A stretch of DNA of 64,000 nt from Escherichia phage JH2. The position numbers were made by a program, and so were the translations under genes. The first letter of the stretch is position 1. Each line of letters starts with the position of its first letter. The stretch lies in the sequence record KF055347; one strand, 5' to 3'. The notes beneath the pieces were generated by a model. It was not told the origin of the DNA. It was given only the letters and a program-made list of their open reading frames with translations, and searched no databases. Shown piece after piece: positions 4,222 to 63,597 of the stretch.

Positions 4222-4444
4222 TTGGACTCCTTAAAAATCTGTTAACCTTTAGCTCTCGTGTTTCAATATATTCCAGATGCTCACGTAACTCTTGACGTTT
4301 GAGCATTAGGTGCTGCATTTGAGATTCAACAGCTTCAACTTCTTTAATTATTGACTCTCTGGCATTTGCAAGAATGCGCTCAAGTTCTTCAATCTTGCTG
4401 TCAACCTTTGCTACATGACTCACAGCTTTACTTTTGTTAAACAT
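4214..4444 (-). CDS. hypothetical coiled-coil protein
   Basis: ORF trimmed to ATG (MFNKSKAV...); charged, coiled-coil-like. Confidence 0.4.
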   Translation of the reverse strand: MFNKSKAVSHVAKVDSKIEELERILANARESIIKEVEAVESQMQHLMLKRQELREHLEYIETRELKVNRFLRSPNV

Positions 4445-4465
4445 TTTATTCTCTCTCAATAGTTA

Positions 4466-4963
4466 TCAAGCACAGTTTGCTTTCATTACCTTATGGATTC
4501 TTCTTTCAGCATCTTCATAAGTTTCTTTAGTGATAAACTTAATTGCTGCAATGTTGGCATTGTAGAAGAGTCTGAGCTTAGAGTCAATCCTTTTTGTCAT
4601 TACATCGAATTTATGTTGGAGGTTTGCTTCACCATAAACTAGACCACCTTTCGTGTAGTAGGTTTGGATAATGTAAAAGTCAAAAAATTCTTTTCCAAAG
4701 CTCTCAATATCTTTTTTAACATACTCAGAAGAAGTCTCATAAGTCATCCAATCACTCTCCTTAGTGACTACCTTCTTCCGAGTCTTGCCAGCAACTTTTC
4801 TTTTGGTCACGCTATTAAACTGTTTCTTTCCTATATAATATTGTCCGGTTTTCTTACAGTATACTAAATAGACAAAACCAAAATGTTTAGTGGGGTCAAC
4901 TTCCCCACATAAAGATACCCAATGACCATAGGTAGGACAATTGCCAAATCCTTTAATCTTCAT
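4466..4963 (-). CDS. putative GIY-YIG family (homing-type) endonuclease
   Basis: N-terminal FGFVYLVYCKKTGQYYIGKK fits the GIY-x10-YIG module; free-standing ORF between replication genes. Confidence 0.5.
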   Translation of the reverse strand: MKIKGFGNCPTYGHWVSLCGEVDPTKHFGFVYLVYCKKTGQYYIGKKQFNSVTKRKVAGKTRKKVVTKESDWMTYETSSEYVKKDIESFGKEFFDFYIIQTYYTKGGLVYGEANLQHKFDVMTKRIDSKLRLFYNANIAAIKFITKETYEDAERRIHKVMKANCA

Positions 4964-5993
4964 TCATACACGGCTCCCAATTATATTTCTTAAAAGAGAA
5001 ATTATCTTTTGGATTTCTCTCTTGATATGCTACCCAGAAATGCTGCTCCATTAACTCTAATGGTGTTTTTGTAACAGTCTGTCCATCCCATGATACATAG
5101 GTATAAGACTCTTTTTTAGCATAGAGTTCATATATAGCGTCAAGACACTCTTTATAGGTCTCTTTACCATCTAAAGCATTCACCACAGCTACTTTTCCAG
5201 CACCTTTAAGGCCGAAGTAGTTGTCTGCATTATCTCCAGCAACAGCCTGATAACACAAGAATTTAAAACCTACACCAACTGTTTTTGCAGCTTTTGGTTT
5301 TGATTTGATAGGACAATCCCAGATATCACCAACATTATTATCAGCGATAAAAATTAGTGGTGATTTTTCATAAGTCATATCAATACAATAGGTTCCTTCA
5401 GCTTGTCGAAGGTCTTTGTCAATACTCATAAGAGCAGCTTTCTTACCCATCTTTTCAGCTTTAGCAATTACGATGGAATCGGCTTCGAAGCCTCCCTTTA
5501 AGAGCTTGAACTCTGGTCTGGATAAAAGATATTCACGACAAGCGACTAAGTGTGTTGGTGTGACAGCATCTTTACGGTTACCTTGATATTGGTGCTCAAG
5601 ACCTTTAATGTCTTTATGTTTATGCACACCCTTCTCTGTTAAGTAACCTACCCAAGTTCTTTCTTTACCAACAACCTTAAGCCATTCCTGAAGAACCTGC
5701 TGAGTAGCCATGATAGCTTCTTTTTCACTCTTAGCTTCTTTCCAAGTCTGCCTTTCCCATTCATCTTCATCAAATGTTAGACCAAGCTCTTCCACAAAGA
5801 TTCTCTGGTCTGCTAACCATCTTGCAGCATCTTTTGCATTATCAAATGGTTCAGATTCTTCTGCTGTGAGTTTATTGACGTATTTATATTTTGCTTTCTC
5901 AACTACACAAGCACCTTTATAGGCAATACTGTCAGAGTCAATAAAGACATGTGTAACTGAATCGGGAAGTTTTGTTAGTGTATACTTCTCCAT
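4953..5993 (-). CDS. 5'-3' exonuclease / flap endonuclease (RNase H-like, T5 D15 / T4 RNase H type)
   Basis: N-terminal VFIDSDSIAYKGA (FEN metal-site I) and VAGDNADNYFGLKGAGKVA (GDxSDN + H3TH-like) motifs; GGAGAG RBS. Confidence 0.6.
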   Translation of the reverse strand: MEKYTLTKLPDSVTHVFIDSDSIAYKGACVVEKAKYKYVNKLTAEESEPFDNAKDAARWLADQRIFVEELGLTFDEDEWERQTWKEAKSEKEAIMATQQVLQEWLKVVGKERTWVGYLTEKGVHKHKDIKGLEHQYQGNRKDAVTPTHLVACREYLLSRPEFKLLKGGFEADSIVIAKAEKMGKKAALMSIDKDLRQAEGTYCIDMTYEKSPLIFIADNNVGDIWDCPIKSKPKAAKTVGVGFKFLCYQAVAGDNADNYFGLKGAGKVAVVNALDGKETYKECLDAIYELYAKKESYTYVSWDGQTVTKTPLELMEQHFWVAYQERNPKDNFSFKKYNWEPCMNED

Positions 5994-6055
5994 TGTGACT
6001 CTCCATATGAAAAAGCCCCATACTAAGTACAGGGCTTTAAAGTAACTTTTAGAGA

Positions 6056-6913
6056 TTAGTCTTCTGTATCGAAGTCTTCATCTTCTTCGTCATCTGGGTC
6101 TGGCAAGTCTTCATCGTCACCATCATCAGAATCATTAGAAGGTTTGTGGTCTTTTGCGTCTTCTTCAGTGATTTCACCGTTATCTTCAACACCATCAAGA
6201 CCAAGCATAGCCAGTTCGTCTTCATCCAGTTCAGGTTCACCGTTAGCACCGTTACCACCAGTGTAAGGTACAAGGGTATCAATGATAAACTGTTCCTGAA
6301 TAGGTTTTGTCAGAACATTGTTCTCAAAAGTGTAGAAGTGAGTAGAAAGAATCACACTACCAAAAGAACCGTTACCGACTGCAATATCTGGATGAATTAC
6401 ATCATAGTTCTTGTCATCTTCATGTTTGTCAGATGCTTGAGCTTTGATTTTCTTCATCGGCTGTTTAACAGCTACACGCTTACCATTTACTTCTTCAATC
6501 AGCATTACAGGGAATGACTGTTTAGCTGTCCACACAGCACCATCTTTATAAGCTGCTGCACGACTTACTTTCAAGATGTGGTAAGTGTCTGCTTCAAATG
6601 GTGGTTTGCAACCAAACTTCTCTTCGAAGTCATCTGCATCAACTGCTTCAGTAGTAACTTTATCCCAACCTTCTGGGTTTTTCTTAGACTTAGTAAACTC
6701 TTTAAACAGCTTGTTACCATCCTCTGCCAGAATTGAAACACTGTAGTTACAATCTTTTCCTGGGAATTTCTTATCAATGGATTTACCTTTTGCCGGACGT
6801 GGTGAAGTGTTCAGGTAATAAAACCAAACATCTTTCAGCAGGTAACGCAGAGTTTGACGTTCAGTACCATTGTACTTCTCTACCGGGGCTTTCATTTTAA
6901 CAACTTTAGACAT
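6056..6913 (-). CDS. single-stranded DNA-binding protein (T7 gp2.5-like)
   Basis: 285 aa with extremely acidic C-terminal tail ending ...DEEDEDFDTED (aromatic near terminus), as in gp2.5-type SSBs; sits next to a T7-like primase-helicase. Confidence 0.55.
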   Translation of the reverse strand: MSKVVKMKAPVEKYNGTERQTLRYLLKDVWFYYLNTSPRPAKGKSIDKKFPGKDCNYSVSILAEDGNKLFKEFTKSKKNPEGWDKVTTEAVDADDFEEKFGCKPPFEADTYHILKVSRAAAYKDGAVWTAKQSFPVMLIEEVNGKRVAVKQPMKKIKAQASDKHEDDKNYDVIHPDIAVGNGSFGSVILSTHFYTFENNVLTKPIQEQFIIDTLVPYTGGNGANGEPELDEDELAMLGLDGVEDNGEITEEDAKDHKPSNDSDDGDDEDLPDPDDEEDEDFDTED

Positions 6914-6985
6914 TATTTAAACCTCTATCTCAATTTATGAAGAGTACCAATTCTAATTTGTTGATACTCTATTGTCAAACATTAA

Positions 6986-7135
6986 TTACTGGAAGTTGTG
7001 CTTATCTTTAGAAGCTGCTTTACGTGCAGTTTTTCCAGTTCTTACACGCTTCTCTTCATAGTATTTTGCTGGTTTACCAGCAGTGGCTTTTAAGGAATCC
7101 CCAAAAACTTTTTCAAATGCTTTAGAGTGTTTCAT
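6986..7135 (-). CDS. small basic hypothetical protein (49 aa)
   Basis: Not in the ORF track (<60 aa); ATG preceded by GGAGAATATC; its start overlaps the upstream stop as ATGA. Confidence 0.3.
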   Translation of the reverse strand: MKHSKAFEKVFGDSLKATAGKPAKYYEEKRVRTGKTARKAASKDKHNFQ

Positions 7136-7413
7136 GATATTCTCCGATATACTTGATATTCAAACCCATTTTCTTTAATTATAAACAGCCAACTAATATT
7201 ATGCTGAGGCAGTGTAATGATGACTGTAATCGTGCTTTGGTAGAAATCTTCTTTTATCTCAACTTCTCCATTGCATTTCATGAGGAGCATTCTATAGAAC
7301 CTATCAACCTTTGTCAAACACTCTTCATGAAATTTATTTAAACTTTTTTCTTCAAAGAAGGGTGTGAACCCCTCTCTTTTATAACTGTCACTCAGTTTCA
7401 AATGGGCAGTCAT
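7132..7413 (-). CDS. hypothetical protein
   Basis: ORF trimmed to Met (MTAHLKLSD...) after GAGGA. Confidence 0.4.
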   Translation of the reverse strand: MTAHLKLSDSYKREGFTPFFEEKSLNKFHEECLTKVDRFYRMLLMKCNGEVEIKEDFYQSTITVIITLPQHNISWLFIIKENGFEYQVYRRIS

Positions 7414-9373
7414 CTGCATCCTCACTTAATACGGGTGGAATCGTTGAGCTTTGACGCTGTTCTTCAGTATAGACTTCACCAGTCTCACGGTCAAACACTT
7501 CATCCTCATAATGAGGTAAAGAGTCATCATAATGGTCTTCAGCTTCACCAATGCCAAACTGTTGGCGAATATTTTCTGCTGCGCCATCAATGTCAACACC
7601 ACATCCCGAAGCTTTGATGAGGCGTCCTGTGTCTGGATTGTACCAAGTATGACCAGCGATACCTGTTGACTTACCATGACGACGACACTTAGTTAACTTG
7701 ATTTTTGTCAAGTTTTTCTTAACAGGGTCTGGGTCAACCTTGTTACGCATTAACAGAATGTTATTCATAGAAATCTGGAAATACGCACCAGAACCCTTAA
7801 TATCCTCTTCAGAAATATCCCCACCTTCAGAGTTAGCTTTCTGACCACCTGCACTCTTACGAACGTGACAGACGTTCACCTGTGCATACTGGTAGCGTTT
7901 GCAACGACGCAATAGCTCAGACAAAACTTCCTCTTCATCCGTATCTGAGCGTGACAGAGCCAACGTGATAGGGTCAAGAATGATAATCTTACAGTCTAAA
8001 CTGTTAACAAGATAGTCAACAAACTCCAGCAAATTATCTTGGTCAATTGCCCCTTGATGGTCAACGATATGTATACGACGGCCTTTAGACAGTTCTGCGT
8101 GTGCTTCCTTCAATTCATCCCAATCTCGTTCATCATAAGGAATCTCAGAAATCTGCTTGCTCAGGTGAATTGCACAGAGCATCTCCATCAACTCTTCATA
8201 GGTATCTTCAACTGGAATTACACCAATATTGTAATCGGTTTCCTTCCAAGCAGTGTAAATCATTTCACGGGTATATGCTGATTTACCTACTGAAGATGGT
8301 GCTGCCAGAGTTGTAATCTCACCTAAACCATAACCACCATAAGTCAACCTGTTCAAATCCCCGAAAGATTCTGGGAAAGGAATCAATGGAATCTGACCAC
8401 GATTCTTCATTGCCTCAAAACCATCTGCGAAGTTCTTGATACCAGCAGGGCAGTAACGAGGTGCGTTGTAGATACGCTGTTTAAATCCTTCCAGAACTGT
8501 GTCTTTCTCTTTATAGAACTTTGTCCACCATTCGTTAAGGTCTTTTACGCCTTCTGGATACTGGAATAAACGAACCTTCTCAATAGGTAGTATGCCAGCC
8601 GCCTCTTTGGTAGCTTTAGCACCTGCTTCATCGTTATCAAAGCACAAGTAAATCTCATCAAATGATGTGATGTACTGATAGTTGTCTTTGATGGACTTAA
8701 TGTTTGCACCTGATGGAACAGATACGTGACAGTAATTCTTACGACGAGACTTATCTTTAATCGCCAAAGAAGTCATGTAGATAGCTGTCGCACATTCCAT
8801 CTCACCTTCCCAGATGAACAGTCGGTTCCCACCTTCTGGAGCAATCCATGAACCGAACATTGCCAGTTCACCTTTAATATCTCCAACACCACCTGAAAAG
8901 TCTTTTAACTTACCACGTAGGTGTTCTTTTGGATGGTCTTCTGGGTAACGGTGACGAACACGATAACCAACATGTTCTAGCTTGCCATCTTCATTACGCT
9001 TGTAAGTCGGATAGAAATGTGCATCAATTTCACCGTCACTATCAATATCAACCTTGATACCTAAACGTTCAAGGACTTTTGCAGGAATCTTCCTATCTTT
9101 CAAGTCCATTGCTTCTAGGTTTTCTTTTACATCGTCTAAATCCATTCCACGGAAAGTACGGTTTTTATTATCTGAACCAGTAGAATAAGTGCTCACGATT
9201 TGTCCTTTATCAAAATCCCACTCTGGGAAACCTTTGTTACAACTAAAGCAAGTCATCGAATAAGAATCATCGTCATGATGGTAGATTGAACCAGCATCTG
9301 ATGAACCACAACGTGGACATGCACAATGACCAATAAACTGACCAGCCTCTTTCAATTTACGACCTTTAGACAT
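7388..9373 (-). CDS. DNA primase-helicase (T7 gp4-like)
   Basis: N-terminal Cys4 zinc ribbon (CACPRCGSSD...CFSCNKG), TOPRIM-like middle, C-terminal DnaB-type helicase with Walker A GLGEITTLAAPSSVGKS. Confidence 0.85.
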   Translation of the reverse strand: MSKGRKLKEAGQFIGHCACPRCGSSDAGSIYHHDDDSYSMTCFSCNKGFPEWDFDKGQIVSTYSTGSDNKNRTFRGMDLDDVKENLEAMDLKDRKIPAKVLERLGIKVDIDSDGEIDAHFYPTYKRNEDGKLEHVGYRVRHRYPEDHPKEHLRGKLKDFSGGVGDIKGELAMFGSWIAPEGGNRLFIWEGEMECATAIYMTSLAIKDKSRRKNYCHVSVPSGANIKSIKDNYQYITSFDEIYLCFDNDEAGAKATKEAAGILPIEKVRLFQYPEGVKDLNEWWTKFYKEKDTVLEGFKQRIYNAPRYCPAGIKNFADGFEAMKNRGQIPLIPFPESFGDLNRLTYGGYGLGEITTLAAPSSVGKSAYTREMIYTAWKETDYNIGVIPVEDTYEELMEMLCAIHLSKQISEIPYDERDWDELKEAHAELSKGRRIHIVDHQGAIDQDNLLEFVDYLVNSLDCKIIILDPITLALSRSDTDEEEVLSELLRRCKRYQYAQVNVCHVRKSAGGQKANSEGGDISEEDIKGSGAYFQISMNNILLMRNKVDPDPVKKNLTKIKLTKCRRHGKSTGIAGHTWYNPDTGRLIKASGCGVDIDGAAENIRQQFGIGEAEDHYDDSLPHYEDEVFDRETGEVYTEEQRQSSTIPPVLSEDADDCPFETE

Positions 9374-9566
9374 TAGCACCTCTTCGTTGTAGTTCTGCCT
9401 TCAATCCGTTTTCAATCTTGTCCAGTTCATGAATTTCATCTGCAATCTCTTTCCTTCGTGATTCAACTCTCTTAAGACGTTCAATCATTACCTCATTGGA
9501 AAGAGATGAGAGTTCCACTAAACGATGGTCAATAACTTTAAAATTATCTTTTACTCTCATCTTCAT
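9366..9566 (-). CDS. hypothetical coiled-coil protein
   Basis: 66 aa ORF directly upstream of the primase-helicase gene. Confidence 0.4.
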   Translation of the reverse strand: MKMRVKDNFKVIDHRLVELSSLSNEVMIERLKRVESRRKEIADEIHELDKIENGLKAELQRRGANV

Positions 9567-9574
9567 CCTCTCTT

Positions 9575-10318
9575 TTAAATTTTCAGGATAGCTCTTAGCT
9601 TGCTTTCAAGGTCTTCAAGAGTACCATTATTCTGAATAATGTCACGCGCATATTTGGTAGAAATTCCATTTTCTGAAACATGTGATGAAACCTTGTCCAC
9701 ATTGTCTCTTTTTACTTCAATAGTCTGGTGTGCAAATCTACTCAGCCACTCAGCTTCAGAGTCAAACCTTAAGTCACTGATTAAAACAACACCTTCTTGA
9801 TTCCTAAGTGAGCAAACGTCAAAGAAATTTGCCATTCGTTTTTCTAGGTCTTTAGCCCAGAACTTGTCACCCATAACTTTACGGATAACTTCAGTACCCC
9901 AAATCTGTTGAATTTGCCTTGATGAGAATTTATACTTTTTACCAAATCCCAGACGTGTTAATAGAGTTGGTTTAGCAACCCTCTTAAGTTCCATGATTAA
10001 TCGTCCGGTTAACTCAGACATAAGCTTAAAGTCCATATGGTAACGTTCATCTCTGAAGGTGAACTCCATAGCTTCCGTAACTTTACTCATAAGTTCAGGG
10101 TATGATAAATCAAAAACCTGTGGGGTCTCTTTAGTTTCTCCGTAAAGGTCATTCCATGTCAAGTCAAATATCTTTGATGCAGATAGCTTAAGATTGTCTG
10201 CATAAGCCATTACTGCAACATTGTAGCCATACTCATCTTCTAAGATATTCTTAACAATAGAACATGAGGTGTCTTTTCCAGAACGTGCCTTTCCAGTAAA
10301 TGCAATAATACTACTCAT
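9575..10318 (-). CDS. deoxynucleoside monophosphate kinase (T5-like)
   Basis: P-loop IIAFTGKARSGKDT and C-terminal IQNNGTLEDLESKLRAILKI resemble T5 dNMP kinase; start moved to ATG after AAGGGAAATAGA. Confidence 0.7.
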   Translation of the reverse strand: MSSIIAFTGKARSGKDTSCSIVKNILEDEYGYNVAVMAYADNLKLSASKIFDLTWNDLYGETKETPQVFDLSYPELMSKVTEAMEFTFRDERYHMDFKLMSELTGRLIMELKRVAKPTLLTRLGFGKKYKFSSRQIQQIWGTEVIRKVMGDKFWAKDLEKRMANFFDVCSLRNQEGVVLISDLRFDSEAEWLSRFAHQTIEVKRDNVDKVSSHVSENGISTKYARDIIQNNGTLEDLESKLRAILKI

Positions 10319-10379
10319 TCTATTTCCCTTCATTACTAAAAAGCCCCCAACTAAGGAGGCTTGTAAGGTTTATAAAGAC

Positions 10380-11192
10380 TTAGTGCAGTTGGCCACTGGT
10401 AATCTGTGAATGCTCTTTTTCAGCCATAGCTGAGATTTGCTTCACAAAATCATCACCGAAGTTAATGCGTAGCTTCTCTTCAATGATTGAAGCGCCAATG
10501 TTTACCAAAACATCATTGATTGCTTGCATACTTACACCGCCAGTCATCTCCTCAACGAACTCAATGGTTACCCCCAACATCTGAGAAAGTTGGATTAGTG
10601 CAACGATATTCATCATTGTAGAGATAGCTGGAATCATCAGAGCAACCTTCACCTGTAGTGGTTCTACATCAGCTACAGAGTCATCTTTCACAGCTTCTTC
10701 TAAAGAGTCTTTAGTTTGCTGGATAATCTCTTGGATTCGTGGGTTTAACTCTTCTACACCCCAATCAAGTTTTTCATATCGTGACAGCTTCTCTTCCATT
10801 CGCTTCTCAAGAGCAGCCATAACAGAACTTGTTGATGAAATTATCATGGAAACTAACTCATTATCACCTAATGAGAGTAACAAGTCCTTTTCTTCAGAGT
10901 TAAGGGAGATATAGTCATTTTTCTGCATCTCATAAAAAATGAACTCTGCAAGAGCATCAACACCTACAACGATAGATGCTAAGGCAAGTGTTTTGTCAGA
11001 CAGCATCATATTAACCTGTTCTGCAAAAGCACCGTTATCAGACTTATCTTTAGGCAAGTTATAGCTTGCAGGCATAAACTGCTCTGTGTAGTTGTTTCCA
11101 CGAAGAATCATAGCCATGCTTTCTACGGCATTGATTAAGAAAGCTTCGTCAACACCTTTTTCTTTAAGCATCTGGTCTACAGTAGTATTCAT
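10380..11192 (-). CDS. hypothetical protein
   Basis: 270 aa ORF with upstream RBS; weak hairpin/T-run downstream. Confidence 0.5.
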   Translation of the reverse strand: MNTTVDQMLKEKGVDEAFLINAVESMAMILRGNNYTEQFMPASYNLPKDKSDNGAFAEQVNMMLSDKTLALASIVVGVDALAEFIFYEMQKNDYISLNSEEKDLLLSLGDNELVSMIISSTSSVMAALEKRMEEKLSRYEKLDWGVEELNPRIQEIIQQTKDSLEEAVKDDSVADVEPLQVKVALMIPAISTMMNIVALIQLSQMLGVTIEFVEEMTGGVSMQAINDVLVNIGASIIEEKLRINFGDDFVKQISAMAEKEHSQITSGQLH

Positions 11193-11193
11193 A

Positions 11194-11616
11194 TTATTTC
11201 TCTCTCAGTTGGTTAAGTTTCTTTCTAGAACATTTTAAGTTTTCAGATGAAGAAAAGTCAAGCGTCTTTTCAGAACGTGGATAGTAATGTCTATCCCAAG
11301 AAGTTTCAACATCGTTAATCAGTGACGCTAGACTACACAGGTCTGTACCACTTTGCAACCTCTTTTTAAGAGAATCTAGTAAAGCAACTGTGTCTTTAGC
11401 TTTACGTCTCGCTGTAGCAACATCTTTCATATGCTCAAATACAGAGCATTTTAAGTCATCTTCGTAGTTTTCAGACAACTCTATTTCATGTTGTATATCA
11501 ACCATTCTCCTGTGATGGTGAGCATATTCCCGTTGAGCAGCAATGTCAAGTTCTTCCAACTTCTGCAAAGCCCTAACAAAGTCAGCTATGTCTGGGTGAA
11601 CAAACATTTTCTGCAT
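11194..11616 (-). CDS. hypothetical protein (first gene of leftward operon)
   Basis: 140 aa ORF with AAGAGG RBS; divergent from the polymerase gene across an AT-rich control region. Confidence 0.5.
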   Translation of the reverse strand: MQKMFVHPDIADFVRALQKLEELDIAAQREYAHHHRRMVDIQHEIELSENYEDDLKCSVFEHMKDVATARRKAKDTVALLDSLKKRLQSGTDLCSLASLINDVETSWDRHYYPRSEKTLDFSSSENLKCSRKKLNQLREK

Positions 11617-11873
11617 GTAAGCCTCTTTTAAGTAACTATTAAGTTTTAATCTTTTATCTTAACGTATTCTATACGTTATACTTTAAAGCTTTTTAAAAGC
11701 TATTAAATAATCTTTTAAGAGTTTTAAAGTATCTGTATAGTTAAACTGTTAAGTAACCTTTTAAGTAAAAACCCACTTCGCAAAGATTAACACCTTGTCA
11801 AGTACATTGTCAACTTGCTTTTTATAATTTTTTGCAGTAATGTATGTGGTTAATGATTTTAGAGGGAGTAAAA

Positions 11874-14016
11874 ATGGAAAACGTAGATTTTAAAAACTTA
11901 CATTTAGTTGGCGATACAGAAACTGATGGTTTACTCCTTGAGTTCACTAAAGTGCACGTAATGGCTTTCGCAGACTATAAATCTGACGATGAAGAGCCAC
12001 CTGTATGGGTCTTTACAGATGAGCCTATCCTCGGCCACAAGTATACCAAGTACATTAAAGGTGGTTTGCGTGAAGGTGTCGAGTTTGCGTTAAAGGCAAA
12101 ACGGCTTTGCATCCATAATGGTCTGGGGTATGACTGGTGGGTTTTCAATCACATTGCACCTGATTTGTGGAACTTTGATAATCCAAAGTGTAAACCGTGG
12201 AGTAATTTCTTTCAGGATTCTCTTATCCAGTCTCGTGTTCAGTGGATGGATAGACCAACTCCAAAGGGTTATAAAGGTGCTCATGGTTTGGCTGCATGGG
12301 GTGCTCGTGTTGGTGTACGTAAACCAGAGATTGAACATTGGGGTGTGTGGAATGCAGAAATCTTCACTCGTGTTGTAGAAGATATCCGTATTAACGCCAA
12401 AACTAAACGTGCACTGGATAATGAATATCTCAAGCTGAAGAAGTGTGGCGTAGATACTTATGAAACCTACATGCGAGCTAAAGAAACATCTTTCTGGATG
12501 AGTCAACAAGCTATCAATGGTTGGAAAGCTGATAAAGAACTTATGGAGTTCCATGTAAAGGAACTTGACAAGTTGACTAATGAGCTTGCTTCAGAAGTTG
12601 AACCACATCTTCCTCCAACTATTAAGACCAAAGGTAAAGTCACTGGAGAAGAGTTTGCAAAAGCTTGGAATGAGTATGTTGAAGCATTCGGTCATGCAGA
12701 TGGACTGAAGAGAATTACCAAGTACCCTAAGACAAAGTATCGTCAGCAGGTACGTAACGGTGAGATGCAGACATATGAAATTAAGCCATTTGGTAAGCCA
12801 ACTACAAAGATTTTTAACATTGAAAAGCGGAATTGCTATACACCAACCAACTCTGTAACTGGTGAAGAGTACAAGGAAGGTTTTGTAGCAATGAAGGATG
12901 CTCGTGCAATTTGCAATGAGTTGAATGCAAAGATTGGTAAGAAATGCAAAGACTGGAAGCCAGTAAAAACAGTTAAAACTGTGAAGTACTATAACAGTCA
13001 TGTTGTGAACCACTTTGAGCTTGAGTCAAGTCGCTACACAGGTTTGATTGATGCACCATATACACCAATTGAGTTTGAAGTTTCTCGAATGACTCAGGTG
13101 GCTGTTGTGAAGGACTACTTGAAATCAGTTGGTTGGATTCCTGATGACTGGAACTATAAGAAAGACTCTGATGGTCGTCCTGTTAAGGTTTGTCGTTTCA
13201 AAGACAACAAAAAGATGATTACCAAACATCCTAAATGGGATGAGATGGTTGAACGGTGCGGTTTGAGTTATGTTGAACATGAAGGTGTACAGTACATTGA
13301 GCATAACTGGTCTGTTAAGAAGTACACAGATTTGCTTGAACCTTGCTTAATCCGTACTTCACCAAAACTTACTGAATCATCTTATGATACGATTGAAGGT
13401 GAGCTTGGGCAGAAGATTGCAAAATACTATACCTTGATGCACAGACGCAGAACTATTGAGAACTCAAAGGATGATGAAAAAGGTTGGTTAAACCAGATTC
13501 GTCCTGATGGTCGCCTTAGTGCTGGTGCAATGGTGTTTGGTACTTCAACTGGACGTATGACACAATATGGTATTGTAAACGTACCGTCTGGCGCTGCTGT
13601 CTATGGAGCACCCATGAGGGAAGTTTGGACTTGTGAAGAGGGTACTAATATTGTTTCAGCCGACATGAATAGCGCCCAACTTGTGCTGCTGTGTAACTTT
13701 ATGGGTGATAAAGATTTCACTAAAGCGGTGACAGAGGGTAAAGAAGAGGTTGAGTTTGTCAAACAAGAGGATGGTAGATACTATTGCAAACATTTTAACC
13801 AGTATCTAAACCCAGCTATTGACAAGTATTTACATTATGATTCTGAAAATGACTTATACGTGGTGTACTCAGGGACTGATGCACATACTTTAAACAGTAT
13901 CTACTTCAGCCTTAATAAAGAGGAAGACATCTTGACATGTCGAGCTACTCAGGATGCAAATCTTCTTCAAGAAATTAGTAAAGGCCGTAAGAAAGCCAAA
14001 AATGGCATTTATGCGT
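11874..14016 (+). CDS. DNA polymerase, family A (T7 gp5-like), exon 1
   Basis: ATG at 11874 after AGGGAGTAAAA; Exo I DTETDG and Exo II HNGLGYD motifs; ends in ...RKKAKNGIYA (motif B region, T7 RDNAKTFIYG). Exon boundary inferred from P1 pairing. Confidence 0.85.
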
Positions 14017-14818
14017 CAGTGGCGCATGTAAAACGTTGTGAATTGCTGGAAGCCTAAGTCTGTAAAGATATGGTAATCAGCAGCGAAGTCTCTGTTAGGA
14101 CTCCTAAAACAAAGGAGAGAGACAATGGCAGGTTACGAAGAGAGATTATGCACTGAGTGTGGTACGGAGTTTAAACCATATCAATACAATCAGAAACGGT
14201 GCAGAAGTTGTGTATTAAAGTTTGACAGAAGGGCAGAACACAGGGTTCTTACTAAGAAATGCCCTAGTTGTGAGAAGGTGTTCATGCCGAGAACAGCAAG
14301 GCAAGTTTATTGTTCGTCACATTGCGGTGAGAAAGGTAGAGTTAAGAATTACTACCTAAGAACATATGGATTGGAAAGAGAAGAGGTTGAGTCTCTACTC
14401 CGTGACTGTGATTACAAATGTCAAATTTGTGGCGGCGAAGGTTTTATCATGAATGGTTCACGACACAAGGCTAAACTTGTTGTTGACCATGACCATAAAA
14501 CCGGAAAGGTAAGAGGTATGTTATGCCACAATTGCAACAGAGCTTTGGGGTTGCTTGCAGATAGTGTTGATAACATGCAAAGAGCGATTGACTATCTAAG
14601 CAAATGATATAACTATAGAGATTCCTAACAGAGAAACGTTCAGAGACTATCGAAAAGCATACTTAACGTATGAACTGAGTAGAGTAGGGTGGTAAGCTAA
14701 TGACCATCCCCAAGTGCAACGGTAGCATCACTGCTACGTGATATAGTCCGACACTCCGTAGAAATGCGGAGAAGTTCATAAGAGAACTGGTACACCTTGC
14801 GAGTGTATTGACCAGATG
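14017..14818 (+). mobile_element. group I intron in the DNA polymerase gene, carrying an HNH endonuclease ORF
   Basis: Exon end ATGCGT (14011-14016) pairs with intron GCGCAT (14022-14027) across a 5-nt loop with U.G at the splice site (P1); proposed 3' end is G at 14818; splicing restores ...NGIYALLFGAGDEK... colinear with T7 ...FIYGFLYGAGDEK. Confidence 0.6.
14125..14607 (+). CDS. HNH homing endonuclease (intron-encoded)
   Basis: Strong RBS AAAGGAGAGAG; Cys-rich N-terminus and HNH core VVDHDHKTGKVRGMLCHNCNRALG. Confidence 0.85.
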   Translation: MAGYEERLCTECGTEFKPYQYNQKRCRSCVLKFDRRAEHRVLTKKCPSCEKVFMPRTARQVYCSSHCGEKGRVKNYYLRTYGLEREEVESLLRDCDYKCQICGGEGFIMNGSRHKAKLVVDHDHKTGKVRGMLCHNCNRALGLLADSVDNMQRAIDYLSK

Positions 14819-15375
14819 TATTGTTCGGGGCTGGCGATGAGAAATTTGCTAAGACGATTAAAGCATCTACAACTGAGGAAGGTGCTTTAACTAAGCAAAC
14901 ATACTTTGTACGTCTCCCTAAAATTAAGAAGTTGATAGATAATTTAGAAGCAGACTTCAAAGCCACTAAGAAGGCTCTTGAAGAGGTATTTGGTAAGACT
15001 GCCGCAATCTCTAAAGGGGGGTTTGTAAAGGTTGCTGGAGCTTGGTTGTGGTGTAAATCTCCACATAAGTTATTGAATTATTTGCTTATGGGTTCGGAAA
15101 GTCAGGTTCAGAATGAAGCCATCAACCTCGCTTGTAGAAGAACTTGTGAAGAGGGTCTTACAAAGTTGAATGGTCGAAAACCAGCTATTGGCGCTAGATT
15201 GCTTTTAGCATATCACGATGAGAATAGTTGGGAGTGTCCAGAAGACATGACGCAGGATGTTAAAGCAGTAATTGACTGGATGTATGGTCAAGCATCAAGA
15301 AATTTAGGGCTTAAGGAGGAAACTCTCGTAACTGGCACTGGTAAAGTTGGTAAAAATTGGCTTGAGGTACACTGA
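14819..15375 (+). CDS. DNA polymerase, family A, exon 2
   Basis: Begins ...LFGAGDEKFAKTIK and contains YHDE (motif C); matches the T7 gp5 C-terminal region; no independent ATG start. Confidence 0.8.
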
Positions 15376-15436
15376 TTAGTATTGACAAGGTGCTCATGGA
15401 AGAGTACCTTATACAATATCTTATATAGGAGGTCAC

Positions 15437-15655
15437 ATGACGCTTTCAGAGATTGAAGTTCAGTTGCAATGTGCAGGTTATTCTCAAAAAGAGATTGAAG
15501 GGATGTTTATTGTTCTTTGCAGTAGCTGTAGGAATTTGAAGGTAAAACCTGAAGTTCTACGTAGAGTCGATATCTTTATTGCTGGAGGCAAAATCGCAAA
15601 AGATAAGACGGGTTACTTAAAAGGTGAGCGTGTAAACATTGAGACTTTACTATGA
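15437..15655 (+). CDS. hypothetical protein (paralog of 15858..16070)
   Basis: GGAGGT RBS; C-terminal IFIAGGKIAKDKTGYLKGERVNIE parallels IIIVDGKIARDRTGVLKGERISID in the downstream paralog. Confidence 0.5.
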   Translation: MTLSEIEVQLQCAGYSQKEIEGMFIVLCSSCRNLKVKPEVLRRVDIFIAGGKIAKDKTGYLKGERVNIETLL

Positions 15656-15861
15656 GCCACCGTGGAAGAACCCATGCAGCAATGATGAAAGGTGCTTCAA
15701 AGGAAACTATCAAGAATCGTAAACAGAAGTTGTTTGAGAGGATGAACAGGTTAATTGACAATTCATCTCTTTCAGGTTCTGAGAAGGTTTTCTTGAAAGG
15801 TAATCTGAAAAGCATTGCACAAGAACTTATTGACATTGAGTATTGGAGACACCAAAAATGA
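15652..15861 (+). CDS. hypothetical protein
   Basis: 69 aa ORF; start overlaps upstream stop (ATGA). Confidence 0.4.
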   Translation: MSHRGRTHAAMMKGASKETIKNRKQKLFERMNRLIDNSSLSGSEKVFLKGNLKSIAQELIDIEYWRHQK

Positions 15862-16070
15862 CACTTGCAGACGTTATTCAGCAACTTCACAACAACTGCT
15901 ACACTCCAGAGTTGATTCAGGAGATGCTCATTGTAGTAATACCTAGTAAGTTCGTAAAAGGTTTTAATCGTGACTCCTTAATGTCTGCACATATCATTAT
16001 TGTTGACGGTAAGATTGCAAGAGACCGTACAGGAGTCCTTAAGGGTGAACGTATTAGCATTGACATCTGA
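15858..16070 (+). CDS. hypothetical protein (paralog of 15437..15655)
   Basis: ORF trimmed to ATG after TTGGAGACACCAAAA. Confidence 0.45.
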   Translation: MTLADVIQQLHNNCYTPELIQEMLIVVIPSKFVKGFNRDSLMSAHIIIVDGKIARDRTGVLKGERISIDI

Positions 16071-16087
16071 GTATTGGAGATACCAAA

Positions 16088-16243
16088 ATGAAACGCAAAG
16101 TAAAATTCTTTAGTTTATATGGAAGAGTCGGTAAAGGTTTTGATTGGCAACTCCTACGTTCAGATGTTAAAAGCAACGAGTTAGCACAGCTTATTATAAA
16201 CTATCGACGAACGTACAGAGAAGTAGAACATCGTGAACAGTAA
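16088..16243 (+). CDS. small hypothetical protein (51 aa)
   Basis: Not in ORF track; ATG after TTGGAGATACCAAA, a near-repeat of the RBS region at 15840-15857. Confidence 0.3.
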   Translation: MKRKVKFFSLYGRVGKGFDWQLLRSDVKSNELAQLIINYRRTYREVEHREQ

Positions 16244-16256
16244 CAGGAGAAGTATT

Positions 16257-16493
16257 ATGTGGAAAGCAGTAATTGTGCTTAGTGTTATCTTTCTATCTGG
16301 CTGTAATCCCTCTTACGAGGACAAAAACGCTTCTTATAGCCTCCCACCAGAGATGCAAGATTGCAAAGTCTATAAGTTACATGGTGATGCCATAAGCAGA
16401 GACATTGTTGTTGTCAGATGTCCAAACTCTCAAACAACAACATCTTATAGCTATGGTAAAAATGGTCAATCACACACTACTGTTATTGAGTGA
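16257..16493 (+). CDS. putative lipoprotein
   Basis: ORF trimmed to MWKAVIVLSVIFLSGC... (signal peptide with LSGC lipobox) after GGAGAAG. Confidence 0.5.
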   Translation: MWKAVIVLSVIFLSGCNPSYEDKNASYSLPPEMQDCKVYKLHGDAISRDIVVVRCPNSQTTTSYSYGKNGQSHTTVIE

Positions 16494-16503
16494 GGTGTTC
16501 AAG

Positions 16504-16710
16504 ATGGAAGTTCTAGTAAACTATATCTACTGTTATGATACTGTTCACTCCACTACAACGGTAGCCCAACGTAACCCAATCGTCCCACGAGAAGGTGAGT
16601 TGGTTCGAATCGAGGGTTGGACTTACACTGTGGAAAGCATCATTCATAAGTTTGATGTTGCTGGTGATGTTCAAGTTATTGACGTAGAGATTGGTGGTAA
16701 GAGAAAATGA
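16504..16710 (+). CDS. hypothetical protein
   Basis: ORF trimmed to ATG (MEVLVNY...) after GAGGTG. Confidence 0.4.
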   Translation: MEVLVNYIYCYDTVHSTTTVAQRNPIVPREGELVRIEGWTYTVESIIHKFDVAGDVQVIDVEIGGKRK

Positions 16711-16874
16711 AACCTAAGCAAACAATGACAGATGCAACCTTCACAGTACACAGTTTCGATAGATTGCACATCAAAGACACAAAAGATACACCAAAATGCG
16801 TTGTACATTTTATTAAAAGGCATAGTAACATGTCCTATATGAAATCTGACAAAGGCAATATCACAAATGAATAA
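16707..16874 (+). CDS. small hypothetical protein (55 aa)
   Basis: Not in ORF track; ATGA overlap with upstream stop; ends overlapping next start. Confidence 0.3.
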   Translation: MKPKQTMTDATFTVHSFDRLHIKDTKDTPKCVVHFIKRHSNMSYMKSDKGNITNE

Positions 16875-17058
16875 AGAAGACAAGCATAAAAATGCTGTAC
16901 GGACTCCTGATGGAAAGGTTCAATCCTTCATCCTGACAGTTGGTGGAAATCCGTTTCGTTGCCACTGCGGAGCAAACTGTTTTCATAAACCAGATAAAAA
17001 TGACTTAGAGCTTTACGCATGTAATGCTTGCAATACTTGGTATCACTCAGAGGAATAA
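16867..17058 (+). CDS. Cys-rich hypothetical protein
   Basis: 63 aa with CHCGANC...CNACN spacing suggestive of a zinc-binding fold. Confidence 0.45.
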   Translation: MNKEDKHKNAVRTPDGKVQSFILTVGGNPFRCHCGANCFHKPDKNDLELYACNACNTWYHSEE

Positions 17059-17059
17059 A

Positions 17060-18163
17060 ATGACAATACTGTACAAACAAAATAAAGACGGCTCTTTTAG
17101 CGTCTGGTCATGCGTTGCTGTAGGTGACAAAGTTGTTACCACGTATGGCAAAGAAAATGGCAAGATGATGTTTGAAGAGTATACAGCAGAACCTAAAAAC
17201 ATCGGTAAAAAGAATGAGCGTAACGCTGAACAACAAGCTCTCTTTGAAGTTGCTGCAAAGTATAAAAAGCAGGTTGACCGCAAAGGTTATGCTTACACAA
17301 AAGAGTCTGCACAGAATACTGAGAAGGTAGGTGTACAGCTTGCTCATGATGCTGCAAAGGTTAGCCATGCAAAGTATCTGAAGTTCCCTGCTGATGCTCA
17401 ACCGAAACTTGATGGTGTCCGTTGTAGGATTTCAAGGCACTTGAGTATTGGCAGTGTATTTACAGCATATTCTCGTGAGAATACTGTTTACAAAATCCCT
17501 ACTGAACTAATACCTGACATTATGGCAATGTTAAGGCTCCACAAAGATGTTGATGAATTTGATGGAGAGATTTATGCTCATGGGTGGGACTTAGAAGATA
17601 TCGTCTCCATGATTAAAAATGAAGACAATCCTGACAGACACTTGCTCAAGTTTTACTGGTATGATATCTGCGACAGTACTAAGACGTGGCCTGAGCGTAG
17701 AGATATCATTGAGACTTCACCATTGAATGACTTTAGAGACGGCTGTAAAGTTGTTCCTGTTAAGTCTCGTCGTGTGAACTCTTGGGAAGAGTTTGATGAA
17801 GCTCATGATAAGTGGGTTGAAGCTAAGTTTGAAGGTGCAATGTACCGTTCAATCTCTGAAGAATCTTTCTACGAGTGTTGTCACCGTTCATACTTCTTGA
17901 TTAAGCACAAGAAGATGCACACTGAAGAGTTTAAAGTGACTGGTGTCAAGACCGATAAACGTGGTCATGGCAAGTTCGTTGTAGAGACTCTTCCTAACGT
18001 CTTTGTAGATGTATCATGGAAGACTACTCATGAGAAGAAACAGTATCTTGCTGAGCATCCTGAAGAGTTTATCGGGAAACCTTTAACGGTTCAGTTCCAG
18101 AAGATGACTCGTAAGGGGTCTTTACAGTTCCCTGTTGGTCTAGTTATACGAGATTATGAATAA
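17060..18163 (+). CDS. ATP-dependent DNA ligase
   Basis: Motif I KLDGVRC (adenylation lysine); start trimmed to MTILYKQ... after AGAGGAATAAA; size typical of T7-type ligases. Confidence 0.8.
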   Translation: MTILYKQNKDGSFSVWSCVAVGDKVVTTYGKENGKMMFEEYTAEPKNIGKKNERNAEQQALFEVAAKYKKQVDRKGYAYTKESAQNTEKVGVQLAHDAAKVSHAKYLKFPADAQPKLDGVRCRISRHLSIGSVFTAYSRENTVYKIPTELIPDIMAMLRLHKDVDEFDGEIYAHGWDLEDIVSMIKNEDNPDRHLLKFYWYDICDSTKTWPERRDIIETSPLNDFRDGCKVVPVKSRRVNSWEEFDEAHDKWVEAKFEGAMYRSISEESFYECCHRSYFLIKHKKMHTEEFKVTGVKTDKRGHGKFVVETLPNVFVDVSWKTTHEKKQYLAEHPEEFIGKPLTVQFQKMTRKGSLQFPVGLVIRDYE

Positions 18164-18169
18164 AAGTTG

Positions 18170-18197
18170 TTGACATAGAAAATTTGGTGAGTATACT
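18170..18197 (+). promoter_or_regulatory. sigma70-type promoter (TTGACA - 16 nt - TATACT)
   Basis: Consensus -35 at 18170-18175 and -10 at 18192-18197, upstream of a G/T-rich repeat tract and gene 18440. Confidence 0.45.
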
Positions 18198-18439
18198 GAG
18201 CAGCATAAACCAACGGGTACTCACCAGCATCACTTAAGAGTCTTCTAAAAGGGTTTTTAAGTGAGGTTCAGTGTTGTATGTTTTGGTATGGTTTGGTAAG
18301 GTAGGGTTTGGTATGGAAGGATGGCAGTAGCCTTATAAAAATCTGCCAAATAAGCTATAAAATCTGTTGACAAGTCAGGTGTTATAGCTTATTTTTATAC
18401 TCAATGTAATACAAAATTTAATATAACTTTGAGGTCATT

Positions 18440-18823
18440 ATGAAAAAGATTTTATTAGCTGCTGCAATGGTTATGGCAATGAATTTACCAGTCAATGCAA
18501 CAGAACTCCCCAATGTGGACTTATCAGGTGTTCCAGAAGACACTTGCCAGATTGTAAAAGGTGTTGCTCTATCTAATGGTGAGTTACTTAAACCAATCTC
18601 TGAAGAGTCTTTGACAGAGATGACTGATAAGGTAACTGACTATCAGTATCGCGTTCTTGCAGAGTATTTCCTGCAATCTGCAAATATTAAAGAGAAACAC
18701 CATGATGATATTGATGTACAGGCTATGCTCAACCATCGTATTCAGTTTAAAGAAGATTTGATGCAAAAAGCTATGTACGGTGTTGAGTATTTCTTAGAAA
18801 ACAGAAGCTGCACAGGTATTTGA
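18440..18823 (+). CDS. secreted/periplasmic hypothetical protein
   Basis: N-terminal signal peptide MKKILLAAAMVMAMNLPVNA; GAGGTCATT RBS. Confidence 0.55.
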   Translation: MKKILLAAAMVMAMNLPVNATELPNVDLSGVPEDTCQIVKGVALSNGELLKPISEESLTEMTDKVTDYQYRVLAEYFLQSANIKEKHHDDIDVQAMLNHRIQFKEDLMQKAMYGVEYFLENRSCTGI

Positions 18824-18824
18824 T

Positions 18825-19037
18825 ATGGCTCTTAAAAAGTTACATCCCAGAAGCGGTTATGGTAAGATAATTGATGATACAGATGGCTTTACAGTCTTTA
18901 CAGTTATCTGTCAAGATGATTCACAGATTGAAAAGGCTCTTGACGATTATCTTAATGATGAACGTGAAAAGGTTAGGGCTACAAACATAGATTCATTGAT
19001 TGACACTTCACGTAAACGGAAGAAGAAAGATGAATGA
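18825..19037 (+). CDS. hypothetical protein
   Basis: 70 aa ORF with basic C-terminus. Confidence 0.4.
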   Translation: MALKKLHPRSGYGKIIDDTDGFTVFTVICQDDSQIEKALDDYLNDEREKVRATNIDSLIDTSRKRKKKDE

Positions 19038-19329
19038 GGTTTTTGACCCTTATGCTCCACAAGATGATTGGGAGGCTGACAGAGAGGCTGAAATGGAGAG
19101 TTATATTTGTCCAATGGATGTAGACGAAATGAGAGATTTCGTTGCACATCGTTTTAAGAGAGAGATTAAATCCAGAGGTCTTTCTCAAGAGCAAGTTGCT
19201 AAAATTTGTGGTATCTCTCAGGCTCGTGTATCCAACATAATCAATCTCACTGGTAATGTCTCTCTTGAGTTTATGTTGGAAGTATGTGAAAAATTTGGTG
19301 TTAATTTTAATTTAAGGTTGGCAGATTAA
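19030..19329 (+). CDS. HTH (XRE-like) DNA-binding protein
   Basis: Helix-turn-helix LSQEQVAKICGISQARVSNIIN; start trimmed to MNEVFDP... Confidence 0.55.
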   Translation: MNEVFDPYAPQDDWEADREAEMESYICPMDVDEMRDFVAHRFKREIKSRGLSQEQVAKICGISQARVSNIINLTGNVSLEFMLEVCEKFGVNFNLRLAD

Positions 19330-19330
19330 T

Positions 19331-19690
19331 ATGAAACGTGAAAACATTATCCACTCCGAAAACTTTGCATTAGGCTTTTATGGTGTACCTACTCACCTTG
19401 AAAAGTATTATGGTGTGAAGATTCTTTCCAACCTCATTATGGCTTACAAAGATGGTAAGATTAAGCATACTGAGAAGAAACGTGTCATGGGTTACATGGC
19501 TGTAGGTTCAGCAATCTCAAACATTAAGCTGGAAACAACTAGCAGCCAGATTGTGAAAGACCACTTCATCAAAGAGCTTTACCACAATCTTGATGGTGTA
19601 GATGTTCAGGCTGTTTGGCTGGATGTTGACGGTCACAACTACACAAGCTTCGTTTTCAAAAACGATGACATTAAATGTTTGTTCCCATAA
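19331..19690 (+). CDS. hypothetical protein
   Basis: 119 aa ORF, tightly packed in operon. Confidence 0.5.
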   Translation: MKRENIIHSENFALGFYGVPTHLEKYYGVKILSNLIMAYKDGKIKHTEKKRVMGYMAVGSAISNIKLETTSSQIVKDHFIKELYHNLDGVDVQAVWLDVDGHNYTSFVFKNDDIKCLFP

Positions 19691-21022: not shown

Positions 21023-21023
21023 T

Positions 21024-53021: not shown

Positions 53022-53270
53022 TGGTATGCCTCTTATAAGACCTCTTAAAAGGCTTTTAAGATAAAAGATAGATATCCAGAAAGATATCTGTTTAAATAGC
53101 CTTTTTAGAGGAACCTTTTAAGTTATCTTCTAAGTATTTATAAGCCTACACCTTGTCAAGTCCTTTGTCAACAACTTTTTTAACTTGCAATAGTTCTTGA
53201 CTTGTTGTATGGATTACTGTACCATCTTACTTAAAGCTGTAGGTCTGCCTTGTTCTACAAAGGAGACTTA

Positions 53271-63377: not shown

Positions 63378-63468
63378 TTTTGAATCTCCTAGTTTAAGGA
63401 CTTTACTTAGTGGGGAGGTCATCCCTCCCGTTGATTAGTAATTTACTTGTTTTGATAGCTGATTGCAA
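63378..63468 (-). promoter_or_regulatory. early cassette 3: promoter (TTGCAA - 17 nt - TAAATT) + 5'-UTR hairpin + RBS
   Basis: -35 at plus 63463-63468, -10 at 63440-63445, hairpin 63412-63429. Confidence 0.55.
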
Positions 63469-63597
63469 GCAATTTTTTAAGTTTATCTATAAAGAATCTT
63501 TTAAGTTAATCCCTTTTAGATAAACCCCCTCGAACAAAGTTACCAATGTCAAGAGGGATTGTCAACACTTTTTTAAAAGTTTTTTGTAAGTTATTGA

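Follow-up and report, generated by a model that had tools for sequence, protein, structure and literature searches.

We analysed a stretch of 64,000 nucleotides (nt) from Escherichia phage JH2 (KF055347; hereafter the window), in which the hexamer TTGACA stands twice in close succession at three intergenic sites. A 5-kb piece around this motif matches 260 phage records with identity of up to 97%, nearly all of them Felix O1-like phages of Escherichia, Salmonella, Shigella and Citrobacter, and on this basis we assign the window to Felixounavirus (Felix O1-like). It is oriented opposite to the Felix O1 reference, whose four 'transcriptons' are recognisable. Genes lie on the minus strand at 1-11616, on the plus strand at 11844-21923 (from DNA polymerase to thymidylate synthase), again on the minus strand at 21960-53021 (structural genes and 26 tRNAs), and on the plus strand at 53250-60508. 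Beyond 60508, a stretch free of open reading frames (ORFs) is followed by small early genes on the minus strand. In a simple gene map, 90% of the window is coding and 9.4% non-coding, and an Rfam scan of the whole window returned tRNAs only. The part of the genome outside the window was examined through the close relative pEP20 (locus L086).

We found the doubled hexamer on the minus strand at 11813-11790 (site A, TTGACA-ATGTAC-TTGACA-AGGTGT), 53171-53148 (site B, TTGACA-AAGGAC-TTGACA-AGGTGT) and 63565-63547 (site C, TTGACA-ATCCCTC-TTGACA); the upstream copy is called box 1 and the downstream copy box 2. A single TTGACAAGGTG lies on the plus strand at 15382-15392 (site D). All four sites are intergenic and run in the same direction as the genes downstream. 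The initial annotation had reported these four control-region copies, and all are present, with coordinates that were 1-13 nt out: the positions 11788-11812 (A), 53148-53172 (B) and 15383-15395 (D) needed small shifts, and TTGACA-N7-TTGACA at site C exists about 12 nt from the reported 63553-63578.

The motif is strongly enriched in the window. TTGACA-N4-10-TTGACA was found three times against 0.28 expected, and TTGACAAGGTG with at most one mismatch seven times against 1.8 expected; none of 100 shuffles reached either count. All three exact TTGACAAGGTG 11-mers and all three tandems fall in the non-coding 9.4%. The density of TTGACA is 1.49 per kb in intergenic DNA versus 0.51 per kb in coding DNA, and 17 of the 18 intergenic copies are oriented with local transcription, so that an even spread over coding and intergenic DNA, which would have spoken against a regulatory role, is not what we found. 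No further tandem site was found in the rest of the genome, as read in pEP20. One extra TTGACAAGGTG in pEP20 (21961) is the -35 element of a TTGACA-N18-TAGGCT promoter that overlaps the terminator after nrdD.

Each of the three tandem sites has the anatomy of a promoter (coordinates on the minus strand). At site A, an A-rich tract read directly as TTACTGCAAAAAATTATAAAAAGCAAG (11814..11840), similar to an upstream (UP) element, precedes box 1 (11808..11813), the functional -35, which is 18 base pairs (bp) upstream of TAATCT. Box 2 (11796..11801) lies in the spacer at about -24 to -19 and is invariant in 14/14 variants. The following AGGTGT (11790..11795) places a TG at -15/-14, in sequence an extended -10 (TGn), and the -10 itself, TAATCT (11784..11789), assigned by its position relative to box 1, is weak and keeps T-12, A-11 and T-7. 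Site B has an A-rich upstream tract (…GTTAAAAAAGTTG; 53172..53195), box 1 as the -35 (53166..53171) 17 bp upstream of TAGGCT, box 2 in the spacer at -23 to -18 (53154..53159; invariant in 7/7 variants), and TAGGCT as the -10 (53143..53148; TAAGTT or TAGTGT in variants). At site C, box 1 (63560..63565) follows CTTTTAAAAAAGTG and serves as the -35, 17 bp upstream of TAACTT; box 2 (63547..63552) occupies -22 to -17 and is invariant in all variants; and the -10 TAACTT (63537..63542) is TAGATT, TACATT or TAATGT in variants. Transcription is predicted to start near 11777 (A), 53136 (B) and 63530 (C). At site D, TTGACA itself is the -35, with N17 to TACCTT at 15405-15410, upstream of a 72-amino-acid gene at 15437; this arrangement is conserved in the three variants available.

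Compared with the sigma-70 consensus, box 1 matches at 6/6 positions in A, B and C, and the -10 hexamers TAATCT (N18), TAGGCT (N17) and TAACTT (N17) each match at 3/6, with T-12, A-11 and T-7 present. A simple promoter scan missed all three sites because it requires 9/12 in total and at least 4/6 per hexamer. The A/T-rich tracts AAAAAATTATAAAAAG (A), GTTAAAAAAG (B) and CAAAAAACTTTTAAAAAAG (C), at about -40 to -60, match UP elements qualitatively only; before box 1 they end in …GTTG, GCAAG or AGTG. A similar context (aaaaaGTTG or aaaaGCAAG) also precedes single-box promoters of the window, at 49555 (TATAGT), 51134 (TAATAT), 18170 (TATACT) and 52637, whose -10 elements are good, unlike the weak ones of A-C. 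With regard to the extended -10, site A has GGTGT-TAATCT, site B and some C variants carry TG at -14/-13, and site C of the window has GG. Box 2 follows box 1 after 6-7 bp and ends 6 (A), 5 (B) or 4 (C) bp before the -10. The box-to-box period is therefore 12 bp at A and B (N6) and 13 bp at C (N7), and only the distance from box 1 to the -10 is fixed.

These assignments differ from earlier ones. In the Felix O1 paper, site B appears as P41 with a spacer of N15, other promoters were not seen at the 40-41 or 96-97 junctions, no promoter is placed at the polymerase junction, and temporal control is left unexplained (PMC3185647). In GenBank KR014248, sites B and C carry 'promoter' features from pattern matching that imply spacers of 23-24 bp. 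Other candidates around the sites were rejected. A T4-type late promoter TATAAATA at site B (53142-53135) is replaced by TCTAAATA or AATAAAAC in relatives. The reverse complements of the boxes (TTGTCA), taken as -35 elements of divergent operons, have spacers of 10 and 22 bp to the only TATAAT (11823-11828), which is not conserved in SUSP1 or Michonne; at site B, TTGACT-N17-TACCAT, which lies about 22 bp away, accounts better for the divergent partner. Among host regulators, none of CRP, FNR, PhoB, PhoP, OmpR, the DnaA box and sigma-54, -32, -24 and -28 fits, as judged by eye against the consensus sequences. Upstream of site C on the minus strand, AATCAATAACTTA (63587-63599) matches the IHF consensus WATCAR-N4-TTR; site C variants keep the consensus positions while N4 varies.

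To follow the sites in relatives, loci were retrieved from IMG/VR by the downstream flank only, so the boxes themselves were not selected for. This yielded 28 loci (14 variants) for A, 23 loci (7 variants) for B and 18 unique Felix-like sequences for C, of which 16 entered the ungapped column count. Across about 40 sequence variants, none of the 12 hexamer positions varies at any of the three sites. The surroundings drift. At A, 4/6 positions between the boxes vary. At B, the N6 is AAGGAC, AAGTAC, AGCCTC or AGGGGA, and the flank is AGGTG, or AGATG in one variant. At C, 24/70 columns vary, including 5/7 between the boxes, 4/4 after box 2 (TTGG, AGTG, TTGA or ATAG) and 2/6 in the -10. The inner -10 positions change among relatives and TAnnnT is kept. 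Since both hexamers are invariant and their surroundings drift, the doubled hexamer is under purifying selection; judged by this pattern, the positions under selection are both hexamers together with T-12, A-11 and T-7, and AGGTG is not among them. The proposals that the motif marks promoter control regions and that the duplication of the box is no accident are thus borne out, by the intergenic position and orientation of the sites and by the invariance of both hexamers across the retrieved relatives.

The same comparison gives no support to the idea that conservation generally reaches past the -35 hexamer. AGGTG is common to A, B, D and pEP20 position 21961 only. As it is missing from C and its variants, we rejected it as part of a universal extended motif; its variation among relatives likewise shows that it is not a general part of the doubled motif, and at A it represents the extended -10 TGn. 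Beyond the genus, Mooglevirus (Michonne) and Suspvirus (SUSP1) retain the tandem at the polymerase junction, and the Michonne variant AGGTGG-TAGTCT retains the TGn.

At the orthologous polymerase junction of more distant relatives, Pectobacterium phage Wc4-1 has a single TTGACA-N17-TAGGCT and Erwinia phage Pistou a single TTGACA-N17-TACATT, which fixes box 1 as the -35. A whole-genome scan found no tandem site in Wc4-1 and one non-coding tandem in Pistou, aataaaaagcccTTGACAttctacTTGACAggggcTAAAGTgttttaagggttttctcttaa, which also occurs in two more Kolesnikvirus genomes; the Kolesnikvirus form is TTGACA-N6-TTGACA-GGGGC-TAAAGT. The Pistou tandem shares with site C a G-rich transcript start and an upstream AATCAG-N4-TTA motif, and therefore the C-type tandem is ancestral to the subfamily, box 2 having probably been gained later at A and B. 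AATCAGACACTTA, upstream of the Pistou tandem promoter, is the counterpart of the IHF-like sequence upstream of site C.

We also scanned IMG/VR for the exact pattern TTGACA-N6-TTGACAAGGTG and obtained 85 loci, the Felix-like sites included. Many of them are coding and encode LDKV or VDKALDKV peptides, with several LDKV cases at spacings that are multiples of 3; a gut 'Clostridium-phage-like' group (L016/L044) was rejected as a promoter on this ground (VDKALDKV). The genuine non-coding cases include one homologous family in marine T4-like contigs (TTGACA-N5-7-TTGACAAGGTG-TACAYT; L037, for example at 9052-9074, and L021, L038, L047, L049, L076, L167, L110 and L151). Among the matches listed, the boxes of this family are separated by N5, N6 or N7, and the distance from box 1 to the TACAYT -10 is always 17-18 bp. 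A scan with the flanks alone returned no new members of the marine family. We regard it as a lead, not a result, that the same design may occur in an unrelated lineage. In the group of L037, a mauE-like ORF stands on one side of the element and gene 55 on the other, and all flanking genes are on the opposite strand. The -10 region of the element folds into a small hairpin in which a compensatory change is seen (ACAC/GTGT versus ACAT/ATGT); the element may drive an antisense transcript or a small RNA.

Each tandem promoter is followed by an untranslated, AT-rich leader of 100-160 nt. The leader of site A (11617..11776, minus strand) contains CTTAAAAG-type words at 11765, 11753, 11719, 11688, 11643 and 11632 and precedes a 140-amino-acid gene at 11616-11194; leaders with words of this style are also present in Michonne, SUSP1, Wc4-1 and Pistou. 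In the whole window, CTTAAAAG-type words number 22 against 5.6 expected, and 14 are intergenic. The leader of site B (53022..53135, minus strand) contains CTTAAAAGG (53122) and related words, before a DUF5681 gene (53021-52650). The leader of site C (63423..63529, minus strand) opens with a 5' hairpin, GUUUAUCUAAAAGGGAU…AUUCUUUAUAGAUAAAC, followed by an ordinary cassette promoter, TTGCAA (63468-63463)-N17-TAAATT; the gene start at this site is likely the ATG at 63377. The A and C leaders share a G-rich start, GGGTTT..C.TAAAAGG. Predicted RNA folds are modest at A and B (z = -2.3 and -2.7, respectively), and the 5' hairpin at C is clear (z = -4.6).

Near site C, repeated cassettes of 62-84 nt (62445-62528, 62774-62857, 63370-63453 and 63937-63998) stand one before each small early gene. 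They consist of a hairpin in the 5' untranslated region, GGGAGGGATGACCTCCCC, then AGGAGA and the ATG, usually behind a TTGACA/TTGCAA-N17-TAAATT promoter, and are reminiscent of the T4-type promoter-early stem-loop (PeSL) cassettes. In pEP20, the minus-strand promoters at 21961 (TTGACAAGGTGGTGTGAGTCTTGATAGGCTTACATCACCTTTTTT, after nrdD) and 13348 (TTGACAAGGGGCTTCAAAGCCCCTTAGAAT, before rIIB) overlap terminator-like hairpins, and the spacer itself forms the stem-loop.

At the polymerase junction, the DNA polymerase gene is split into 11844-14057 and 14821-15375, with an endonuclease gene (14125-14607) between the parts that relatives label endonuclease VII or HNH homing endonuclease. The polymerase start codon is apparently an ATG near 11873, behind GAGGGAG, rather than 11844. 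CTGTATAGTT (11733-11742, plus strand), within the leader of site A, is kept in Felixounavirus, Mooglevirus and Suspvirus. A DNA polymerase promoter could use it as its (extended) -10; this promoter and promoter A would then face each other, their starts separated by about 30 bp. Directly upstream of the 26-tRNA cluster (45901-50987), a gene at 51153-52568 encodes a Ro60/TROVE-like RNA-binding protein (DUF2828/DUF7788/vWA; PHROG 'RNA-binding protein'). Its homologues are scattered among large phages that are not related to each other (KVP40, mycobacteriophages, and Listeria and Staphylococcus phages), and are absent from the Erwinia and Pectobacterium relatives.

The reading that we tentatively favour is that A, B and C are three related, paralogous promoters for the sigma-70 form of host RNA polymerase, heading leftward transcription units, and that box 2 is read by region 4 of sigma-70. 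The promoter anatomy, its geometry, the paralogy of the sites and the selection on both hexamers are shown by the data; the start points, an early timing of these promoters and, above all, the reader of box 2 and its effect are predictions. Each promoter has four parts: the A-rich UP-like tract, the consensus -35 (box 1), the spacer of 17-18 bp and the weak TAnnnT -10. The weakness of the -10 would be deliberate, with the TGn added at A, and box 2 would act as an auxiliary docking site for region 4 that raises the capture or retention of polymerase where the -10 is poor. Alternatively, box 2 may hold sigma for one helical turn while the enzyme leaves, as a hand-over, or may act as a brake. The conserved block is exactly the six bases recognised by sigma region 4, and the flanks of box 2 vary; an exact TTGACA that occurs twice and is loosely positioned is most simply read by the same domain both times. 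The loose spacing (N6 or N7 between the boxes; 4, 5 or 6 bp from box 2 to the -10) fits independent reading of each hexamer and not a rigid dimer.

Several points weigh against this reading. Start sites and timing are inferred, and the published end-point reverse transcription PCR (PMC3185647) is too coarse and internally odd. The search pattern used across phages required both boxes, so the conservation seen in that search is partly built in. We know of no described sigma-70 promoter with a spacer-embedded -35 of demonstrated positive role, and targeted literature searches for one found nothing relevant; if polymerase docked on box 2, competition with productive binding is what one would expect. 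Box 2 is missing from other strong promoters of the phage, and Wc4-1 has no tandem site at all, which shows that polymerase does not need it. Moreover, sigma region 4 is nearly identical across Enterobacterales, the Erwinia and Pectobacterium hosts included, and a benefit intrinsic to polymerase therefore leaves the doubling at A and B, limited to the Escherichia/Salmonella/Citrobacter clade, unexplained.

A different reader of box 2 would be a phage DNA-binding protein, such as the helix-turn-helix (HTH) protein encoded at 19000-19329 or another, that binds both TTGACA(A) boxes and, sitting over the -35 and the spacer, shuts down or tunes the three promoters after the first minutes of infection. 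We consider this possible although doubtful. There are only three tandem copies per genome, each at the head of a transcription unit; TTGACAA is a 3-1-3 palindrome, and the tandem reads as an operator-sized pseudo-dyad of 19 bp, TTGnCAA-N5-TTGnCAA; and the single-box promoters of the same genome indicate that polymerase does without box 2. The protein at 19000-19329 is a genuine HTH_3/XRE protein, and tblastn found its gene only in the Escherichia, Salmonella, Shigella and Citrobacter clade (Felixounavirus, Mooglevirus and Suspvirus), in which all three sites are doubled; it is missing from the syntenic operon of Pistou and Wc4-1. On the other hand, as an XRE/Cro operator the tandem fails both in symmetry and in co-occurrence with the regulator. 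It is a direct repeat with only pseudo-symmetry, and the distance between its boxes is not fixed, at 12 bp in A and B and 13 bp in C. A search for TTGWCAA-N5-TTGWCAA with up to two mismatches found only A and B as real matches. Pistou and two other Kolesnikviruses have the tandem promoter and no HTH homologue, so the design exists independently of this protein. Furthermore, conservation is confined to the sigma-70 hexamer, and XRE proteins usually bind true inverted repeats; the one such repeat of its kind (18348-18394) lies on the promoter of the HTH operon and is unlike the tandem boxes. The suggestion of an operator for the HTH protein is thereby weakened, and this protein is a poor candidate for the reader of box 2. 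If box 2 instead retained sigma after initiation, it could be a pause or priming module: region 4 would re-dock on it after about 12-13 bp, as at lambda PR', while a terminator read-through factor loads, or the G-rich transcript start would prime or activate replication in AT-rich, iteron-like DNA. Box 2 does lie one helical turn downstream of box 1, and the AT-rich leaders of 100-160 nt with CTTAAAAG-type words and the conserved G-rich start GGGTTTnnCTTAA are of the expected kind, as is the Pistou tandem promoter, which points straight into 1.4 kb of ORF-free iteron sequence, behind which there is no gene. A sigma-dependent pause requires a -10-like hexamer, and none was found 16-18 bp downstream of box 2 at A, B or C, where the hexamers at 17 bp are AAGTGG, TACTTA and GGGGGT. 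No antiterminator or initiator protein was identified, and the origin function of the iteron region is itself a guess. Overall we rate such a module as quite unlikely, even though it would accommodate the read-through of many terminators that the Felix O1 authors left unexplained (PMC3185647).

The same lack of a -10 in register bears on overlapping promoters, in which box 2 would be the -35 of a second promoter starting about 12 bp downstream. Site D (N17-TACCTT) and pEP20 21961 (N18-TAGGCT) show that TTGACAAGGTG can serve as a -35, but the hexamers 16-18 bp after box 2 have no key -10 base in register at A, B or C, and the region after box 2 is conserved as GGGTTT… and not as a -10. We therefore rejected this role for box 2 and regard a second promoter as very unlikely. 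Box 2 might also be a functionless relic of a 12-bp slippage duplication of the -35 region, copied along with a promoter cassette. A, B and C are paralogues that share the UP tract, both boxes, TAnnnT and CTTAAAAGG, and a single ancestral accident could account for all three. However, no variant of A-C departs from the six bases of box 2, nor does Kolesnikvirus, and the adjacent bases are saturated with change; this conservation pattern already disfavours a relic, which we likewise hold to be very unlikely. Compared with these, reading of box 2 by sigma-70 region 4 is the account that we tentatively retain, and the term phage-specific promoter class used in the initial annotation can be kept in part: the promoters are a distinct class within the phage, as a variant of the host sigma-70 type, and nothing indicates a phage sigma factor.

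Two regions touched by these alternatives have features of their own. The 276-bp intergenic region 18164-18439, upstream of the HTH operon, has GGT-rich repeats and no ORF. It opens with the best promoter match thereabouts, TTGACA-N16-TATACT (18170-18197), and ends in an inverted repeat with 19-bp arms (18348-18366/18376-18394), after which comes a T-run; the loop of the repeat is the -35 of the promoter before the HTH operon. This repeat is the only one of its kind in the window, and relatives, SUSP1 among them, conserve it. It is a more orthodox operator candidate, or else a terminator; the region as a whole could represent a small RNA of about 190 nt plus terminator, or could serve the HTH operon downstream as its operator.

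The ORF-free stretch at 60509-62203 (1.7 kb) lies between convergent terminators and is filled with strand-biased words: TTGTTA occurs 15 times against 0.9 expected and TGTTAA 17 times against 1.3 expected, together with CTTAAAAG and CTGTAAAG. At 61197-61347 these words show partial phasing with a period of 11 bp. The equivalent in Pistou is a region at 81699-83106 that is likewise rich in iterons and free of ORFs, and the Pistou tandem promoter points into it. The GenBank record of pEP20 was opened within this stretch (window 61154/61155), with no terminal repeat in the record. We regard 60509-62203 as a candidate replication origin or packaging region.

The tandem promoters share features with several known systems. 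Like T7 A1-A3, the T5 early promoters and E. coli rrnB P1, they combine an A-rich tract, a consensus or near-consensus -35 and a spacer of 16-18 bp, and like the early promoters of T7 and T5 they would be served by unmodified host polymerase at the head of early transcription units. Those promoters are not known to have more than one -35, whereas the phage promoters described here have a second exact TTGACA in the spacer and a markedly weak -10 (3/6). At the PR' pause of lambda and phage 82, an extra -35-like hexamer near the promoter is likewise contacted by region 4 in a non-canonical register; those elements are transcribed, lie beside a -10-like pause hexamer and serve Q antitermination, whereas box 2 precedes the start, lacks a -10-like partner and comes with no known Q-like protein. 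The binding sites of lambda CII and P22 C1 (TTGC-N6-TTGC at PRE, PI and PaQ) are also TTG-initial direct repeats with 6 bp between them that overlap the -35. They have a period of 10 bp, flank a poor -35 and belong to temperate phages, whereas here the period is 12-13 bp, the repeats are the -35 consensus and the phage is virulent. As CII-type sites the tandems accordingly failed, on the TTGACA sequence, the period and the consensus -35. As with spacer operators (lambda OR1/OL1, or lacO in engineered T5 and tac promoters), a protein bound between the -35 and the -10 would occlude polymerase, but such operators are dyad-symmetric and unrelated to the -35 sequence, whereas box 2 is the -35 sequence and its binding protein only putative. 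Finally, the scattering of paralogous early-promoter cassettes in the genome, and the similar small-gene cassettes by site C, recall the T4-type PeSLs, which differ in being recombination modules of the hyperplastic regions of T4-like phages, with a single -35 and nothing equivalent to box 2. A literature search brought up neither reports of tandem -35 boxes nor maps of transcription start sites for Felixounavirus or the Ounavirinae.

Taken together, the element is a sigma-70 promoter variant with a selected, spacer-embedded second -35, a real but modest variation. In a wider form, the spacer-embedded consensus -35 would be an undescribed core-promoter element read by sigma-70 region 4 as a further landing or hand-over site, around which unrelated virulent phages (Ounavirinae and marine T4-like phages) build immediate-early promoters with weak -10 elements, the ancestral Ounavirinae copy driving an ORF-free iteron region that may be a replication origin; this generalisation we consider unlikely. 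The temporal control of transcription in Felix O1-like phages is an admitted gap, and both biocontrol and the typing of Salmonella make wide use of these phages. A well-defined host-type promoter is now placed at the polymerase junction, two sites annotated in GenBank with impossible spacers have received correct -35/-10 assignments, and a six-base element present in three copies and clearly protected by evolution has been isolated. If box 2 is truly read by sigma-70, it would be a small addition to the grammar of bacterial promoters and useful for the design of strong, tunable promoters. If it is read by a phage protein instead, the element would identify the switch of the main leftward transcription units of the phage.

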